Below are positions 12,894 to 58,449 of a DNA stretch of 64,000 nt, piece by piece. How positions within the stretch are numbered: position 1 is the first letter of the stretch; each line of letters opens with the position of its first letter. The DNA comes from a phage. Position numbers and translations under genes: made by a program. Under the pieces are notes generated by a model, which saw only the letters and a list, made by a program, of their open reading frames with translations, did not search any database and was not told where the DNA came from. The stretch is from sequence record PX104380.1; one strand, given 5' to 3'.

Positions 12894-13531
12894 TTAGAAT
12901 CCTTAAATTTACATTTATCATAATGCCATCTTAAAGCATTGCCTTTATTAACTTTCTTGCCACAATGCGGACAAGGCGGATACTCTGTACCTTGCTTAGT
13001 TCTCAAAGAAATCAAATCACGGGTTTCTTTAGTATGAGGAACATCTCTTGTCGGAGAAATTGTACCATACATCGGATTAAGCACGCCGACTTTAGCAGCA
13101 GCTATATTCTTTTTAGCTTCTTCGGTTTTAGGTTTTCTCATGCGAGCTAAATGCTCTTTGGTAAATTTCCTTCCTTTAAGAGCTCTACTTATCTTTTCTC
13201 TGGTTTCCATAGAAACTTCACGTCCTATAGCAGCTTCAGATAAACGTCGTCTACCTAATTCGTACAGTTGAGAAGAAATTTTATATGAGCGATTTTTACC
13301 AGTCAAGCACATTAAACCAAAAGCTTTCTTTAATCCTGGGGTGTCATATATTTTACATAAAAGCCAATGAGCTATAAAATGCTCTCTACCTGTTAATTCA
13401 ACTAAATTTTCTTTATCATCAGAACCTCCCATGCATTTAGGGACTATATGATGTGTCTCTTTATATTCGGATAAAGGTTCCCGAGCCTGAGCTCGGGAAA
13501 TTAGGTCATTATAGATTTTTTGATAATTCAT
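12890..13531 (-). CDS. mobE: HNH homing-endonuclease-like protein, 213 aa, between nrdA and nrdB
   Basis: HNH motif ETHHIVPKCMGGSDDKENLVELTGREHFIAHWLL; position matches recalled T4 mobE. Confidence 0.7.
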   Translation of the reverse strand: MNYQKIYNDLISRAQAREPLSEYKETHHIVPKCMGGSDDKENLVELTGREHFIAHWLLCKIYDTPGLKKAFGLMCLTGKNRSYKISSQLYELGRRRLSEAAIGREVSMETREKISRALKGRKFTKEHLARMRKPKTEEAKKNIAAAKVGVLNPMYGTISPTRDVPHTKETRDLISLRTKQGTEYPPCPHCGKKVNKGNALRWHYDKCKFKDSK

Positions 13532-15795
13532 TACAATTTACACGCTGCACAATCGTCGGCTTTAGGAGTTTCTATTTCATAATCATCAGTACCAGAACCA
13601 TCACGGGTATTATGATAATAGAAATTTTTAATGCCATAATACCATCCGTATAACATGTCATCAATCATTATTGACATTGGAACCTTTCCTTTTGGAAAAA
13701 TCTGCGGGTCATAGTATGTATTCGCCGAAGCTGATTGACAAACCCATTTCAGCATAATAGCTACCTGCGTAAGATAAGGTTTATTACCTTTCTTAGCTAA
13801 TTTCCATGTATAATCATAGAGGTCTATGTTATGCTCAATATTGGGCACGACTTGATTAAAGGAGCCCTCTTTTGATTCTTTAACAGAGACTGGTCCACGT
13901 GGAGGCTCGATACCGTTTGTACTGTTAGAAACTTGGGAAGATGACTCACATGGCATAAGTGCTGATAATGTGCTATTACGGATGCCAAAGAGCTTAAGGT
14001 CTTCCCGCAGCGACGACCAGTCACAAACGTATTTTGGAGCTGCGATTTGGTCAATCTTTTTATTGTACCAGTCGATAGGTAATTCGCCTCGAGACCAACG
14101 AGTGTCTGAATAATATTCGCAAGGTCCTTTTTCTTTGGCGAGTTTAATGGATGCTTTAATGAGTCCATACTGTAATCTCTCAAATAGTTCATGTGTTAAA
14201 TCGTTAGCATCTTCATAAGAAGCAAAGTTACTTGCCAGCCAAGCTGCATAGTTAGTAACACCTACACCGAGGTTACGACGCTTTTTAGCTTTTTCTGCTT
14301 CAGGAACTGGATATCCTTGGTAATCCAAAAGATTATCAAGAGCACGAACTTGAACTTCTGCCAATTCATTAATTTTATCTTGGTCTTGCCAATCGAAGTT
14401 ATCCAGCACAAATGCAGATAACGTGCACAATCCAATTTCAGCATCGGGGCTATTCACATCATTTGTTGGAATAGCAATTTCACAGCACAAGTTACTCTGA
14501 CGAATAGGTGCCTTTTCACGAATAAACGGAGTATAGTTATTCGTATTATCAATGAACTGTACATAAATCCTTGCTGTTCCTGAGCGTTCAGTCATGAGCA
14601 ATTCAAATAGTTCACGAGCTTTAATACGCTTTTTACGAATATTAGGGTCTTTTTCTGCTGCTTCGTATAATTCACGGAAACGGTCTTGGTCTTTAAAATA
14701 AGAATAATAAAGCTCTCCACCCATTTCATGCGGACTGAACAAAGTAATGTAGTCGTTCTTTCCAAAACGTTCCATCATTAGGTCATTCAGCTGGACGCCA
14801 TAATCCATATGACGGATACGGTTTTCTTCTACACCTTTGTTATTTTTCAAAACGAGAAGATTTTCAACTTCCAAATGCCAAATAGGATAATAAGCAGTAG
14901 CAGCGCCGCCACGAATTCCACCCTGTGAGCATGATTTAACAGCAGTCTGAAAATGTTTCCAAAAAGGAATAACACCAGTATGACGCACTTCACCCATGCC
15001 AATCTTAGAACCTTCGGCACGAATCATACCAACGTTAATACCAATTCCAGCACGTTTGGAGATATATTCAACAATTGAAGCGGAAGCCTTATTGATAGAC
15101 TTTAATGAATCACCTGCCTCAATAACAACACATGAACTAAACTGCCGAGTCGGAGTACGGCAACCAGCCATAATAGGAGTTGGTAATGAAATCTGTCGAG
15201 TAGATACTGCTTCATAAAAACGAATAACATGTTTTAATCTATCAACAGGTTCATCTTGATGCAATGCCATTCCAATAGTCATAAATGCAAACTGAGGAGT
15301 TTCATAAATTTGACCAGTGGTTTTATCTTTAACTAAATATTTTTCTTTTAATTGCATCGCCCCGGAATAAGTAAATTCCATATCCCGCTCGTGCTTAATT
15401 TTTGATTCTAAAAATGTAATTTCTTCTGCTGAATATTTTGACAATAATTCAGGGTCATATTTACCTTCATTTACACAGTAAGAAATATGGTCAATAAATG
15501 AACGCGGTTCATACTGCCCATAAACATGCTTACGAAGAGCGAACATTAGACAACGTGCAGCTACATATTGATAATCAGGCTCTTCAACCGAAATAGAATT
15601 CGCAGCGGCCTTAATGACAATAGTCTGAATATCATCAGTTGTCATTCCATCACGGAGATAAGATTTAATATTTTCATATAATTCATAAGGATCTACTGAT
15701 GTTCCCTCAGCTGCCCAAGATAAAACTTTAATAATTTTTTGTGGGTCAAAGCTCTGAGAAACACCACTACTTTTGATAACATTAATTAATTGCAT
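13531..15795 (-). CDS. nrdA: ribonucleotide reductase large subunit, 754 aa
   Basis: 754 aa with N-terminal ATP-cone and class I RNR catalytic region; ATG verified. Confidence 0.95.
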   Translation of the reverse strand: MQLINVIKSSGVSQSFDPQKIIKVLSWAAEGTSVDPYELYENIKSYLRDGMTTDDIQTIVIKAAANSISVEEPDYQYVAARCLMFALRKHVYGQYEPRSFIDHISYCVNEGKYDPELLSKYSAEEITFLESKIKHERDMEFTYSGAMQLKEKYLVKDKTTGQIYETPQFAFMTIGMALHQDEPVDRLKHVIRFYEAVSTRQISLPTPIMAGCRTPTRQFSSCVVIEAGDSLKSINKASASIVEYISKRAGIGINVGMIRAEGSKIGMGEVRHTGVIPFWKHFQTAVKSCSQGGIRGGAATAYYPIWHLEVENLLVLKNNKGVEENRIRHMDYGVQLNDLMMERFGKNDYITLFSPHEMGGELYYSYFKDQDRFRELYEAAEKDPNIRKKRIKARELFELLMTERSGTARIYVQFIDNTNNYTPFIREKAPIRQSNLCCEIAIPTNDVNSPDAEIGLCTLSAFVLDNFDWQDQDKINELAEVQVRALDNLLDYQGYPVPEAEKAKKRRNLGVGVTNYAAWLASNFASYEDANDLTHELFERLQYGLIKASIKLAKEKGPCEYYSDTRWSRGELPIDWYNKKIDQIAAPKYVCDWSSLREDLKLFGIRNSTLSALMPCESSSQVSNSTNGIEPPRGPVSVKESKEGSFNQVVPNIEHNIDLYDYTWKLAKKGNKPYLTQVAIMLKWVCQSASANTYYDPQIFPKGKVPMSIMIDDMLYGWYYGIKNFYYHNTRDGSGTDDYEIETPKADDCAACKL

Positions 15796-54611: not shown

Positions 54612-55082
54612 CTAGCGATAAAAACCAAATTGACGATTAGCTTCAATAATCTTTCTTTCTTCTTCGGACATTCTCCAGCGTAGTCCAACATCAAAATGAG
54701 CCCAGACCATCTTAACAAATGCATTTATATCTTTAATATCTTCAATAATGAATGTTTTACTTTTAGAAGGTTGACTCGCTAATTTAACTTTATCATCTTC
54801 AAATAGGTCAAAAAGACCATATTCATGAGCTCTTTTATAGCCTTTAATAGTTAAAGCTTCAGAAGAAGAAAACGGTGAATCGGTATTATGCAAAATATCT
54901 TCAGTATGCTTTATAATTAGAATAACATTTTCTGGATATTTTCTTTCTTTTATATCTTTAATTAAAAAATCCGGATTTTCTGCTAAAGGAATAATTAATG
55001 AGCATTTTTTATCAAGTGTATTTACTGATTTACCTTCTTTAGACATAAATTCTATTGAATATAATTTTGCTACTTCAATCAT
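54612..55082 (-). CDS. hypothetical protein, 156 aa
   Basis: ORF track; ATG verified. Confidence 0.5.
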
Positions 55083-55239: not shown

Positions 55240-55439
55240 GATTTATCACCATAGATGTCTCTCATCAATTTAAGCGCTGAGCGTTCTAATTTCTTTTCTT
55301 TCTCAGCACTAATCATTGATTTCATCCATTCTTCTGATTCGTTCTGCATTTCTTTATTTGCTTGTTCAACCCAACCATCATCAATATACATTGAGTTTGG
55401 TCTATTGAACCATTCAAGAATCTTCTTGAGAGCTTTCAT
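55236..55439 (-). CDS. hypothetical protein, 67 aa
   Basis: ORF track. Confidence 0.45.
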
Positions 55440-55911
55440 TTATTTTACCTAAAACAATAGTATGGACACCGTCAAATTTATGAATTTTTAGCAAATTAGG
55501 ATTTAAATTATTCCATAAAGAGGTAATAAAATATGATAGTGCATTTTCTTCTGTAATTATAAATTTATTTCCCTTATCTATTTTCCAGTCATATATTGAA
55601 TCGTATGAATATAATGGCAATGGTTTATTGTTATAATATGATTCAGCAACATCAATATAGTTAGATTTAGTAAATGCTTGAATTGACATAAATGGAGAAT
55701 TTCGTACAGTTTCAATAATTCCGATCTTTTTAAGTTTTATTTCAACATCTTCTGGAACTGGCATTGAAATAAAATCTTCTACTAGATACATGTTATTATC
55801 ATATCTTTTATCAATCATTACTGCTACTGTAATTGGAATATCTTTAGCAAACGCCATGCTATCACTATTGATAGACATTTCAAACAAAATCGCTTCCATA
55901 ATTTTCCTCAA
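55414..55911 (-). CDS. hypothetical protein, 165 aa
   Basis: ORF track. Confidence 0.5.
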
Positions 55912-56249
55912 TCACAAGATGTAGATGAACAACCAGAATCACAAGAACTTCCACATGAATCGCCCGTCCATACATGAACAGGAACATTAGTGTCATATGA
56001 ATCAGAACTAGACTGTGTATTCTGCGTATTAGATGATGTAGTAGGTGTTGACCAGCGCCAAGGATTTTTATAATATTCTTGGGCTTCTTCATAAGTCATA
56101 GTAACTGCTTCTACTGTTCCATCTCCCATATAAACATATTCAACTACAGTTAAAGGAAGGTAGTCATTTGAAATAGGAACTACACCTTCTCCGGGAGTTG
56201 TAGAGAAAAAATCCGTAAAGAAACTTTTAAACCAATTAAAGATAAACAT
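55908..56249 (-). CDS. hypothetical protein with Ser/Thr-rich linker and Cys-rich C-terminus, 113 aa
   Basis: C-terminus [18 protein letters not shown] after [15 protein letters not shown] low-complexity stretch. Confidence 0.45.
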
Positions 56250-56461
56250 TACAAAAAGCCTCTCTTAAATTCGATTCTTTGAAATCCACCCCAGTCAGTG
56301 TATCGCATTTCAGCATTGAACTCGACTGAACCATCTGCATGCATCATGAATGAATGCGTGACGATATCACAATCCCAGCTTTTCATACCCCATTTATCAG
56401 AGATAGCTTTATCAAGAACCTTCTGGAGGTCTTCATTTGGTTTAATCCAACGATTTAACAT
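56249..56461 (-). CDS. hypothetical protein, 70 aa
   Basis: ORF track. Confidence 0.45.
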   Translation of the reverse strand: MLNRWIKPNEDLQKVLDKAISDKWGMKSWDCDIVTHSFMMHADGSVEFNAEMRYTDWGGFQRIEFKRGFL

Positions 56462-56827: not shown

Positions 56828-56835
56828 TATTTATA
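56828..56835 (-). promoter_or_regulatory. late promoter (TATAAATA) for soc
   Basis: Minus-sense TATAAATA ~30 nt upstream of soc ATG, overlapping the 3' end of the HNH ORF. Confidence 0.65.
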
Positions 56836-57667
56836 ATCCATTTTCAAATCTCTTTATCATGTTTATATAATTTTCGTCAGGATAACCTAGGCTAACTGCT
56901 AGTTTTCTAAAATTGACATATTTAGGTTTGTTGTTATTAATCCATAATTCTCTAAGCTCTTTTTCATAATTCCATTTAAGTTGATTTCTGCGTGCAGTTT
57001 TGCTTAAAGTTTTTCCTTTAGCTTTTAAAGCTTTTTCAGATGACTGTTTTAATTTTTGAATATTTAAAACTTCTTCTATAGATAAATTATTTTCCTTTGA
57101 ATATCTTATGCAAAAATCTTTTACTGCGGCTATTAGGCAATTTTTGTGAGTACCTAAAATTTCTGGGTTATTTTCTTCAACTAAAATTCCCCAATATCTT
57201 CGGTAGCGAGGCATATCTCTTGAAATCCAGTCATTATACCAAAAATCAAAGTTGGAATACATGAAAGATTTTCTTTTACGAAGAGTATCTTGGTTTATCC
57301 ATTGCTCACGTTTATCAGCCCATAACTTAATAGTAAAGTCTTTTTCTGAGTCAGAAAGCTTCTTAAATTGCGAGCTATTTACTGAGGTCATTCTCTGGAA
57401 TGCATTCAGCAATCCAAATCTTCCAGTTGAACATAAGAGATAGTGAACATATATGTGTTGATATATTGGGAGATATACTCTATTCCAAGGATGTATTTTA
57501 AAATCACTATACTCAGGAAATGCGCATTTAGGAAGTATATGATGGGCTTCTGTTTTAGATTTGATGTGAGTGTTTAACTTATATTTATCTATAATTTTTA
57601 AGTACTCATCTAAAAGTTCCCATTGCGGGAACTTTTCTTTAAGAGCAGATTTGAAATTAATATCCAT
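56831..57667 (-). CDS. HNH homing-endonuclease-like protein, ~278 aa, between soc and gene 56
   Basis: HNH motif EAHHILPKCAFPEYSDFKIHPWNRVYLPIYQHIYVHYLL, similar to the mobE ORF; track start 57682 is TTG, ATG at 57667. Confidence 0.6.
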   Translation of the reverse strand: MDINFKSALKEKFPQWELLDEYLKIIDKYKLNTHIKSKTEAHHILPKCAFPEYSDFKIHPWNRVYLPIYQHIYVHYLLCSTGRFGLLNAFQRMTSVNSSQFKKLSDSEKDFTIKLWADKREQWINQDTLRKRKSFMYSNFDFWYNDWISRDMPRYRRYWGILVEENNPEILGTHKNCLIAAVKDFCIRYSKENNLSIEEVLNIQKLKQSSEKALKAKGKTLSKTARRNQLKWNYEKELRELWINNNKPKYVNFRKLAVSLGYPDENYINMIKRFENGL

Positions 57668-58175
57668 TATCTTGACGTTCAAAATTATGCTTGTTCTTCA
57701 GATAATAAAGTTTAAAGATTTCTTCAGCAGTAAGGCCGAGACCTTGGAACATGTTCAGAACGAAATGAAGAATATCAATCATTTCGAATTTAATTTCCAA
57801 CTGGTCTTGTGGAGACAAATCAGTAATCAGAGTTTCACGACGTTCACCATGCTGCGACTTCCAAGGCTTCCATACAGCAGATGCATCTTTTTCACCATTG
57901 CTCATACCACCAAGAGAAGTCAGAAGTTCACGGAATTCATCATCAATGTAATCTTTCTGATTACGCAGCCAATCGACAACTTCACCTGCAGTAGCCAAAT
58001 CATCAGGATGACGGTTATATTCAGGTTTATCTTTAGCTAAACGAACCTGCAGAGATTTCTGCATATCAAGCATAACTTGCAGTGGGTCTTTTTCATCACC
58101 GAGAATATCCCAGTATTCATTTTGAGCTTTATCAGCACCAGCGATCAGATGACTACATTCGTTGAAATGTGGCAT
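57657..58175 (-). CDS. 56: dCTP pyrophosphatase (dCTPase/dUTPase) gp56, 172 aa
   Basis: 172 aa MazG-like; position upstream of soc. Confidence 0.85.
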   Translation of the reverse strand: MPHFNECSHLIAGADKAQNEYWDILGDEKDPLQVMLDMQKSLQVRLAKDKPEYNRHPDDLATAGEVVDWLRNQKDYIDDEFRELLTSLGGMSNGEKDASAVWKPWKSQHGERRETLITDLSPQDQLEIKFEMIDILHFVLNMFQGLGLTAEEIFKLYYLKNKHNFERQDNGY

Positions 58176-58248: not shown

Positions 58249-58449
58249 ATGGTACAAAAATTAATGGCACTTGTTAATGCCATAAAAGGTAATAAAAAAC
58301 GTATAGCTTTTACTATTTCTGCTATGGTAGGAATTTTACTCTGGAACTTTATTTTATCACCTGTTGCAATTGCACATGGTGTTAATATTCCAGTAGTTAC
58401 TCTTGATACATTTGTAGATTTAGCATTTGCTTTAGTTGGGTTAATTTAA
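58249..58449 (+). CDS. small membrane protein, 66 aa, plus strand
   Basis: ATG at 58249 preceded by AAGGAGG; two predicted TM segments (IAFTISAMVGILLWNFIL, LVGLI). Confidence 0.45.
   Translation: MVQKLMALVNAIKGNKKRIAFTISAMVGILLWNFILSPVAIAHGVNIPVVTLDTFVDLAFALVGLI

Follow-up and report, generated by a model that had tools for sequence, protein, structure and literature searches.

Does a short open reading frame (ORF) of odd composition in a T4-like phage encode a genuine protein and, if it does, what might its cysteine-bearing end be for? The question is raised by mrh.1, which lies on the minus strand at positions 55908..56249 of a 64,000-nucleotide stretch of phage DNA (sequence record PX104380.1; hereafter 'the window'), a segment of a Tequatrovirus (T4-like) genome. 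A first inspection of the letters alone (the sequence-only reading) had described the ORF as a small protein with a hydrophobic N-terminus, a Ser/Thr-rich low-complexity linker and a Cys-rich C-terminal tail, and had suggested that it might bind metal or be a secreted or membrane-anchored peptide. The ORF proves to be exact at both ends: it comprises 113 codons running from ATG to TGA (with the TGA at 55908-55910) and specifies a protein of 113 amino acids. The linker and tail strings quoted in that reading were likewise accurate and correspond to residues 70-84 and 96-113, respectively. The cysteines, however, had been miscounted: instead of six, the 18-residue tail holds four, C99, C103, C107 and C112, and the window Mrh.1 contains no others.

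The ORF is, with virtual certainty, the ortholog of T4 mrh.1, that is, a genuine early-transcribed accessory gene of the T-even phages and a full-length member of the DUF7206 family. The 1.4 kb around mrh.1 has matches in 684 phage records, with identities of up to 97%, and in annotated relatives, as in T4, the ORF is named mrh.1 and located between mrh.2 and mrh, just downstream of soc. T4 Mrh.1 (T4p027, UniProt P20706) has the same length, occupies the same place, gives the same family match and is identical to the window protein at 111 of 113 positions (98%), the differences relative to T4 being T95A and G106S. Pfam DUF7206 (PF23836) is matched with 103.8 bits (cutoff 25.6; E = 9.9e-30), residues 3-113 aligning to profile positions 1-107 of 107, and phrog_2031 is matched with an E-value of 3.8e-33; both families are without assigned function. 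The exact window Mrh.1 sequence belongs to a 90%-identity cluster of 515 members. The gene itself is therefore not new, since it is already annotated and catalogued, and what we add is the anatomy of the family; full-text literature searches for mrh.1 and DUF7206 returned no relevant main-text discussion. Note that some records of mrh.1 orthologs (Escherichia phage BW-1 and the T6 RefSeq entry NC_054907.1) carry the name 'prohead assembly scaffold protein'. This is probably a propagated mis-annotation, unsupported by sequence, context or family models.

Given that the sequence is partly low-complexity, one has to ask whether the ORF could be a chance frame whose composition merely looks protein-like. 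Several independent signals speak against this. Using a codon model trained on the long ORFs of the window, we found that the mrh.1 frame scores +0.32 bits/codon, similarly to its neighbours, while the five other frames are negative; the comparison of codon usage with neighbouring genes that the sequence-only reading had proposed thus comes out coding-like for the annotated frame. The pairwise ratio of non-synonymous to synonymous differences (pN/pS) is 0.05 in Tequatrovirus orthologs and 0.24 in Dhaka-like orthologs, well below 1, with the tail no exception. Homologs down to 34-44% identity keep the frame, with the stop codon always directly 3' of a Cys-Asp dipeptide, and the protein belongs to curated Pfam and PHROG families. 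The mrh.2 TAA overlaps the mrh.1 ATG (TAATG), which suggests translational coupling of the two genes, and a Shine-Dalgarno-like GAGAGG (56259..56264, minus strand) lies 9 nt upstream of the mrh.1 ATG within the 3' end of mrh.2, in the context TTTAAGAGAGGCTTTTTGTA followed by the ATG.

The published T4 data bear on the same question. In a time-resolved T4 omics study (PMC9697503), mrh.1 has the RNA class 'early' and the protein class 'NA', while mrh.2, mrh, srh and modA.4 all have protein classes; the dCTPase gp56, which is essential, is also listed there as 'NA'. The missing class could be taken for lack of a protein product. It is, however, expected on technical grounds because Mrh.1 yields few usable tryptic peptides: its trypsin products are MFIFNWFK, a 53-mer, NPWR and a 48-mer, leaving one peptide of 7-30 residues as compared to 3-9 for the neighbouring proteins. 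The mass of unmodified Mrh.1 is about 12.62 kDa. In a CRISPRi-ART translational knockdown study (PMC11879866), mrh.1 is scored 'Semi-Fit' (mean score 0.79, statistic 0.069, five guides) and is placed among five Semi-Fit T4 genes 'with purely unknown function'. In the same data (PMC11879866), the genes on its flanks, mrh.2, mrh, srh and soc, all score 'Not Fit', which argues against a polar artefact. Translation of mrh.1 is thus indirectly supported by purifying selection, codon usage, translational coupling and the knockdown phenotype. Taken together with the conservation and the curated families, codon usage, pN/pS and the knockdown phenotype effectively refute the chance-ORF explanation, the probability of which we consider close to nil. 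The sequence-only reading had called the composition unusual for a phage early protein, and had named a lack of conservation in related phages and of any sign of translation as grounds for dropping its proposal; conservation in related phages is extensive, and conservation, coding signals and clustering of the cysteines all agree with an unusual, genuine small protein.

How far does the family reach, and which parts of the protein does it keep? An exhaustive HMMER search of 1.84 billion representatives combined with a profile search recovered 146 homolog clusters, nearly all with PF23836. Searches of phage collections gave 502-777 matching records; the T-even genomes with a homolog number in the hundreds, almost all of them from phages of enterobacterial hosts. 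The matches in cultured phages are to T4-like phages of Escherichia, Shigella, Yersinia, Klebsiella, Salmonella, Citrobacter, Enterobacter, Serratia, Erwinia and Edwardsiella. No Mrh.1 homolog was found in 185,579 bacterial and archaeal species genomes. One hit of the exhaustive search, the repeat-rich 1152-residue protein P0027, was excluded as a spurious low-complexity match. Family statistics below refer to 128 full-length members and conservation percentages to 70 sequences, while pN/pS by gene region was computed for the Dhaka-like group.

The part of the protein under the strongest constraint is the acidic Ser/Cys tail (residues 96-113; 55911..55964, minus strand). At a pS of 0.39, pN/pS is 0.06 in the tail as compared to about 0.26 elsewhere in the gene. 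The placing of all four cysteines within the last 15 of 113 residues has a chance probability of 2e-4 (about 0.016 for any 14-residue span), and among the 219 ATG-initiated ORFs of at least 40 codons in the window, mrh.1 is the only one with four cysteines in its last 15 residues; the Ser/Thr/Asp/Gly fraction of these residues (0.73) is also the highest of the 219. Across the family, two cysteines are conserved: C103, in at least 90% of sequences and usually in an S-C-D-S context, and C112, which is invariant. S102, D104, S105 and D113 also reach at least 90%. The T4 group owes C99 and C107 to lineage-specific gains; accordingly, the tail has two cysteines in 109 members, three in 2 and four in 17. 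All 128 members have at least two cysteines within their last 30 residues, and only 8 have a cysteine anywhere outside the tail. The near-invariant C-terminus is Cys-Asp in 126 members and Cys-Asn in the other two, and the residue after the penultimate cysteine is Asp in 101 of 128, while the spacing of the last two cysteines varies from 4 to 12 residues. The last 25 residues consist of 41% Ser, 14% Asp, 13% Gly, 9% Cys and 7% Tyr, and the last 20 contain no Lys or Arg in any member, their net charge being -3 to -4.

The tail also stays in frame in P0003, the 164-residue Mrh.1 of Escherichia phage 235Ecol030PP, despite a natural insertion of about 50 residues before it. P0003 is a mosaic: it combines a T4-type N-terminus and a four-Cys tail with a middle insert (…EEIIRQPEKAGNVGAGALPLNSKKLKEHLDSRR…TAPIITATAVSSW) that matches the Dhaka-type linker (compare loci L013-L020), which suggests recombination between Mrh.1 types of different genera. 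The constraint on the tail, its conservation and its in-frame survival past the insertion together identify it as a selected functional element rather than low-complexity filler. Furthermore, selection appears to act on the thiols as such, because the two conserved cysteines are never swapped for serine, the T4 group has gained cysteines and basic residues are excluded. Ser and Cys codons differ by a single nucleotide change.

Upstream of the tail, the protein consists of three regions. The first is an N-terminal amphipathic helix motif (residues 1-15; 56205..56249, minus strand) with the pattern M-[IF]-x-[WF]-[LI]-K-x-[LF]-F, present in 118 of 128 members including the window protein, in which K8 and F15 are at least 90% conserved. 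The helical hydrophobic moment of the first 11 residues is 0.56, as compared to 0.29 +/- 0.14 for shuffled sequences, and AlphaFold predicts a helix at residues 3-15, although at low confidence: the predicted local distance difference test score (pLDDT) is 54-58 in the window protein and 54-61 across the two models that we computed. This is followed by a PGEGVVPI motif (residues 19-26; 56172..56195, minus strand; family consensus P-G-E-G-x-V-P-I, or P-x-E-G-x-V-P-I in alignments A2 and A3), with P25 at least 90% conserved, which leads into the second region, a beta-hairpin with a short helix (residues 34-61; 56067..56150, minus strand). The hairpin region is the only confidently predicted structural element, with strands 34-40 and 46-52 and helix 53-61 at pLDDT 75-85. 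Its core, E-Y-V-Y-x-G-D-G-M-M-E-E-V, is near-universal, with Y40, G42, D43, G44 and E47 invariant and E37 and V49 at least 90% conserved. The third region is the Ser/Thr/Asn/Gln-rich linker (residues 67-95; 55965..56051, minus strand), which includes the low-complexity string of the sequence-only reading (55998-56042). It is predicted to be disordered and is poorly conserved, the distance from the GDG motif to the last 20 residues ranging from 35 to 100 residues across the family.

As predicted, then, Mrh.1 is mostly disordered. The AlphaFold2 model of the window protein, built on a 70-sequence alignment, has a mean pLDDT of 58.7 and a predicted template modelling score (pTM) of 0.28, and its pLDDT drops under 50 over most of the stretch 71-98 and in part of the tail. 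The model of a typical longer member, P0047, shows the hairpin, one helix in the linker and an unstructured tail. The tail has a pLDDT of about 50 or below in both models and is, to judge from them, probably disordered. A profile search of PDB sequences returned nothing at E <= 10, and a Foldseek comparison of the AlphaFold model against the PDB returned nothing at E < 1, the top rows, which include a ribonucleotide reductase at E = 1.8, being noise. Since both models are low-confidence and mostly unstructured, no function can be deduced from the fold.

The anatomy of the N-terminus speaks to the proposal that Mrh.1 is secreted or anchored in the membrane, in which case one would expect the N-terminus to be a signal peptide or a transmembrane anchor and the tail with its cysteines to act in the periplasm. 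The N-terminus is indeed rich in Phe, Ile and Trp, and in many relatives the tail is preceded by a short hydrophobic stretch, e.g. TPIVVAAAVSSW. The hydrophobic N-terminus of the sequence-only reading therefore stands insofar as the segment is aromatic-rich; it does not stand as a segment of the signal-peptide or transmembrane type. Taking a mean Kyte-Doolittle hydropathy of about 1.6 over about 19 residues as the threshold for a membrane span, the 19-residue maximum of the window protein is 0.76, and none of the 128 members reaches the threshold (maximum 1.34, median 0.66); the hydropathy check thus reveals neither a signal peptide nor a transmembrane segment in the window Mrh.1. The conserved Lys in the middle of the N-terminal motif and the Pro-Gly directly after it do not correspond to a signal-peptide layout, no signal-peptidase site is visible, and the hydrophobic stretch before the tail spans about 8 residues and does not occur in the T4 group. 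We therefore regard a secreted or integral-membrane peptide as highly improbable. On sequence grounds, the most that can be proposed is that the amphipathic helix may mediate peripheral binding to a membrane or to a partner. In form, it resembles the N-terminal membrane-targeting helices of SepF, MreB and FtsY, which are likewise about 10 residues long and alternate bulky hydrophobic residues with Lys; scored in the same way, the hydrophobic moments are comparable, at 0.41-0.80 for Mrh.1 N-termini and 0.39-0.58 for those of SepF and MreB. Unlike these helices, to which it is not homologous, the Mrh.1 helix of the T4 group is unusually Phe-rich and contains Asp13.

What, then, might such a protein do? 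The reading that we favour, at a probability of roughly 35-40% for the mechanism as a whole, is that Mrh.1 is a largely disordered effector built as an anchor, a tether and a tail. The N-terminal amphipathic helix and the invariant beta-hairpin would form the anchor that attaches the protein either to a partner or to the membrane's inner face, and the variable-length linker, predicted to be disordered, would act as the tether. The tip of the tail would then present two thiols, or four in the T4 group, together with carboxylates from Asp residues and from the free C-terminus of the Cys-Asp end, and could function either as an arm chelating a soft divalent metal of the Zn/Fe type or as a thiol-dependent arm that engages a host factor during takeover. 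Metal binding, as already suggested by the sequence-only reading, is a reasonable hypothesis, since an acidic Cys/Asp-rich tail devoid of Lys and Arg would, by its composition, fit cation chelation.

A number of points weigh against this mechanism. Metal binding, thiol chemistry, membrane association and a partner of any kind, a host target included, are all things that we infer. With only two conserved cysteines, a canonical tetrahedral site would need further ligands from Asp residues, from the C-terminal carboxylate or from a second chain. No structure is predicted for the tail, which also matches no known metal-binding motif, and the N-terminal helix is modelled at the low confidence given above. 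Finally, the T4 knockdown effect is weak and statistically borderline (PMC11879866), and with Mrh.1 lacking a protein class in the omics data (PMC9697503), the support for translation stays indirect.

By their defining features, zinc ribbons and metallothioneins differ from Mrh.1. A zinc ribbon or finger, with its four ligands in two CxxC-type knuckles of a folded mini-domain, is not compatible with the C-x3-C-x3-C-x4-C spacing, with the restriction of family-wide conservation to C103 and C112, with the low pLDDT of the tail or with the lack of any match to a Pfam zinc domain. A metallothionein-like protein is equally at odds with four cysteines in 113 residues, with two tail cysteines in 109 of 128 relatives and with the absence of CxC and CxxC motifs. 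Another comparison is that with the N-terminal domain of E. coli ZntA, which has a DCxxC metal site with fixed CxxC spacing in a folded ferredoxin-like domain. Both the ZntA site and the Mrh.1 tail combine thiolate and carboxylate ligands in acidic surroundings that suit divalent cations; in contrast to ZntA, the Mrh.1 tail is predicted to be disordered, its spacing varies and there is no sequence relationship.

The same features of the tail can be explained without invoking metal. The tail could be a disordered C-terminal peptide ligand, or an acidic-tail or nucleic-acid mimic, that is read by a host or phage protein, with the cysteines serving shape and contact rather than chemistry. A terminal Cys-Asp in 126 of 128 members, combined with a spacing that varies from 4 to 12 residues upstream of it, is typical of peptide recognition anchored at the C-terminus; the predicted disorder of the tail would fit as well, and gp32 of the same phage (19862-20770, minus strand) also ends in a Ser/Asp-rich acidic tail. 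Furthermore, a T4_MRH-family gene lies within about 1 kb downstream of mrh.1 in most loci, and purified Mrh forms a very large complex (PMC8076793), which together make Mrh a candidate partner for the Mrh.1 tail. However, mere recognition would not explain why, in a tail dominated by Ser, the two conserved cysteines are never replaced by Ser even though a single nucleotide change would suffice, nor why the T4 group has added two more. The candidate partner is not always at hand either: Dhaka-like loci have no mrh beside mrh.1, and in the Serratia-phage locus L021 a T4_MRH gene was not detected; for these reasons we rejected an obligate Mrh.1-Mrh pairing. On balance, we see a metal-free recognition tail as possible, if rather unlikely.

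Two cysteines near the extreme C-terminus of a tail predicted to be disordered could alternatively form a reversible disulfide, which would make Mrh.1 a substrate, decoy or shuttle of thioredoxin or glutaredoxin; the variable spacing would be compatible with a loop disulfide. The phage itself offers a likeness. Its NrdA (13531-15795, minus strand) ends in an acidic Cys pair (…KADDCAACKL), and together with that of gp32 this tail indicates that acidic, flexible C-terminal tails recur in the genome. The C-terminal tail of NrdA is flexible. As in the tail of class Ia ribonucleotide reductase NrdA, the Mrh.1 Cys pair lies within the last 10-15 residues or so and has acidic flanks. Unlike NrdA, Mrh.1 has no enzyme domain, its spacings of 4-12 are far looser than C-x2-C and its tail is Ser-rich and ends in Cys-Asp, which leaves an analogy of form without homology. 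The lack of an attached catalytic domain (DUF7206 is the sole Pfam match, and the protein is mostly disordered) speaks against a redox arm, as does the chemical consideration that acidic surroundings without Lys, Arg or His would raise the thiol pKa and so disfavour reactive thiolates, and nothing links Mrh.1 to thioredoxin or glutaredoxin genes. We consider a redox function unlikely. The likenesses to the ribonucleotide reductase tail, to Cys/Asp metal sites and to membrane-targeting helices are all analogies of form and not homology.

The architecture of Mrh.1 also recalls the precursors of ribosomally synthesised and post-translationally modified peptides (RiPPs), in that a conserved N-terminal 'leader' precedes a short Cys/Ser/Thr/Gly-rich C-terminal 'core', which a phage or host enzyme could convert to lanthionines, azoles or thioethers. 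Precursors such as the FxLD lanthipeptides (NCBIfam TIGR04363) and microcin B17 McbA share this layout, and residues 95-109 match TIGR04363 at E = 0.038. This match is, however, compositional and sub-threshold (14 bits against a cutoff of 30). No LanB/C/M, YcaO or radical S-adenosylmethionine (SAM) enzyme was found within 3-5 kb in the window, in T4 or in more than 20 related loci, the rest of the window not having been scanned protein by protein, and T4 annotations are not known to contain a lanthipeptide synthetase, YcaO-type cyclodehydratase or peptide-modifying radical-SAM enzyme. Nor did the search of 185,579 bacterial and archaeal species genomes reveal a relative encoded beside such enzymes, and it is hard to see why a lytic phage should make an antibacterial peptide among its early products. 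In the absence of a nearby maturase and with a match due to composition, a RiPP precursor is very unlikely.

Returning to the anchor-tether-tail reading, its boldest form would be that DUF7206/Mrh.1 constitutes a previously unrecognised class of phage takeover effector: disordered, possibly membrane-tethered, and acting by thiol chemistry through a Cys...Cys-Asp-COOH tail. Such a tail might take up or pass on a metal ion or Fe-S cluster, or might bond covalently or coordinately to a specific host protein. In this strong form the idea is doubtful.

The setting of mrh.1 is that of a conserved early cassette. The gene order in the window, soc, mrh.2, mrh.1, mrh, srh, modA.4, modA.3, modA.2, modB and modA, is the same in T4 and in distant relatives, and the cassette can be written as soc, (mrh.2), mrh.1, [mrh], [srh, modA.4], modA.3, modA.2, Mod ADP-ribosyltransferase(s), srd, dda. 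Immediately upstream of mrh.1, and adjoining it in both Tequatrovirus and Dhaka-like loci, is mrh.2 (56249..56461, minus strand), which encodes a 70-residue protein of phrog_1873, a group without assigned function; Mrh.2 has no Pfam family and contains a single Cys, in a W-D-C-D context. Further upstream, a terminator-like hairpin follows soc (56553-56532, minus strand; AAGGACTCC-TTCG-GGAGTCCTT and then a T-run), which has a 9-bp stem with 5 GC pairs and is recognised by consensus match only. Between it and mrh.2 lies a sigma-70-like promoter with an extended -10 (TG) element, TTTACT-17-TATAAT (56516-56488, minus strand), also a consensus match only, at 10 of 12 positions. As predicted from the sequence, this promoter would start an early mrh.2-mrh.1-mrh transcript, in agreement with the 'early' RNA class that T4 mrh.1 has in the omics data (PMC9697503).

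Downstream, the ATG of mrh (55414..55899, minus strand; 161 residues, Pfam T4_MRH PF24070, E = 9e-40) follows the mrh.1 stop by 8 nt. The modA.3 product (54612-55082, minus strand; 156 residues) matches the same Pfam family (PF24070) at E = 9.5e-39 and is thus a paralog of Mrh, which gives the cassette two genes of the Mrh family. Dhaka-like phages have just the modA.3-type copy near mrh.1; it lies further downstream, srh coming directly after mrh.1.

The flanks of the cassette contain two further ORFs. Between soc and the dCTPase gene 56, a 283-residue ORF (56831-57682, minus strand) matches phrog_655 'homing endonuclease' and an HNH-endonuclease PHROG and has no Pfam match. In this flanking mobile element the T4 locus differs from the window: T4 has the unrelated GIY-YIG segF at that position where the window has the HNH-type homing endonuclease, which means that different mobile endonucleases fill one intergenic slot. 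Between gene 56 and the primase gene 61, a 66-residue ORF on the opposite strand (58249-58449, plus strand; phrog_2024, named RB32ORF030w in a relative) is strongly hydrophobic (…AFTISAMVGILLWNFILSPVAIAHG…FVDLAFALVGLI) and looks like a small membrane protein.

The family also has fused or extended members, P0114 and P0117 (194-201 residues), in which no further Pfam domain was detected. P0117 (194 residues; L004:4001-4585, on the 60-kb Logan contig SRR28523263_385) belongs to DUF7206 and is extended by about 90 residues at its N-terminus. Its contig shows no synteny with T4, cultured phages gave no match, and in its neighbourhood there are a DNA-polymerase fragment (phrog_8888) and uncharacterised ORFs, with nothing informative adjoining. 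Judging from this contig, the DUF7206 family may extend beyond the classical T-even phages.

About 130 of the 289 proteins of T4 are described as poorly characterised (PMC8076793). For Mrh.1, the present analysis provides a testable family anatomy, consisting of helix, hairpin, linker and Cys-Asp tail, and explains how shotgun proteomics would come to overlook the protein. If the tail is not a metal- or thiol-dependent arm, Mrh.1 is one more conserved accessory ORF without assigned function. If it acts through thiol chemistry, this would explain the mild cost of its knockdown in T4, add a mode of action that is new among T4 early proteins and provide DUF7206 with a function. A metal- or thiol-dependent arm would, in either form, be a new way for T-even phages to manipulate their enterobacterial hosts.

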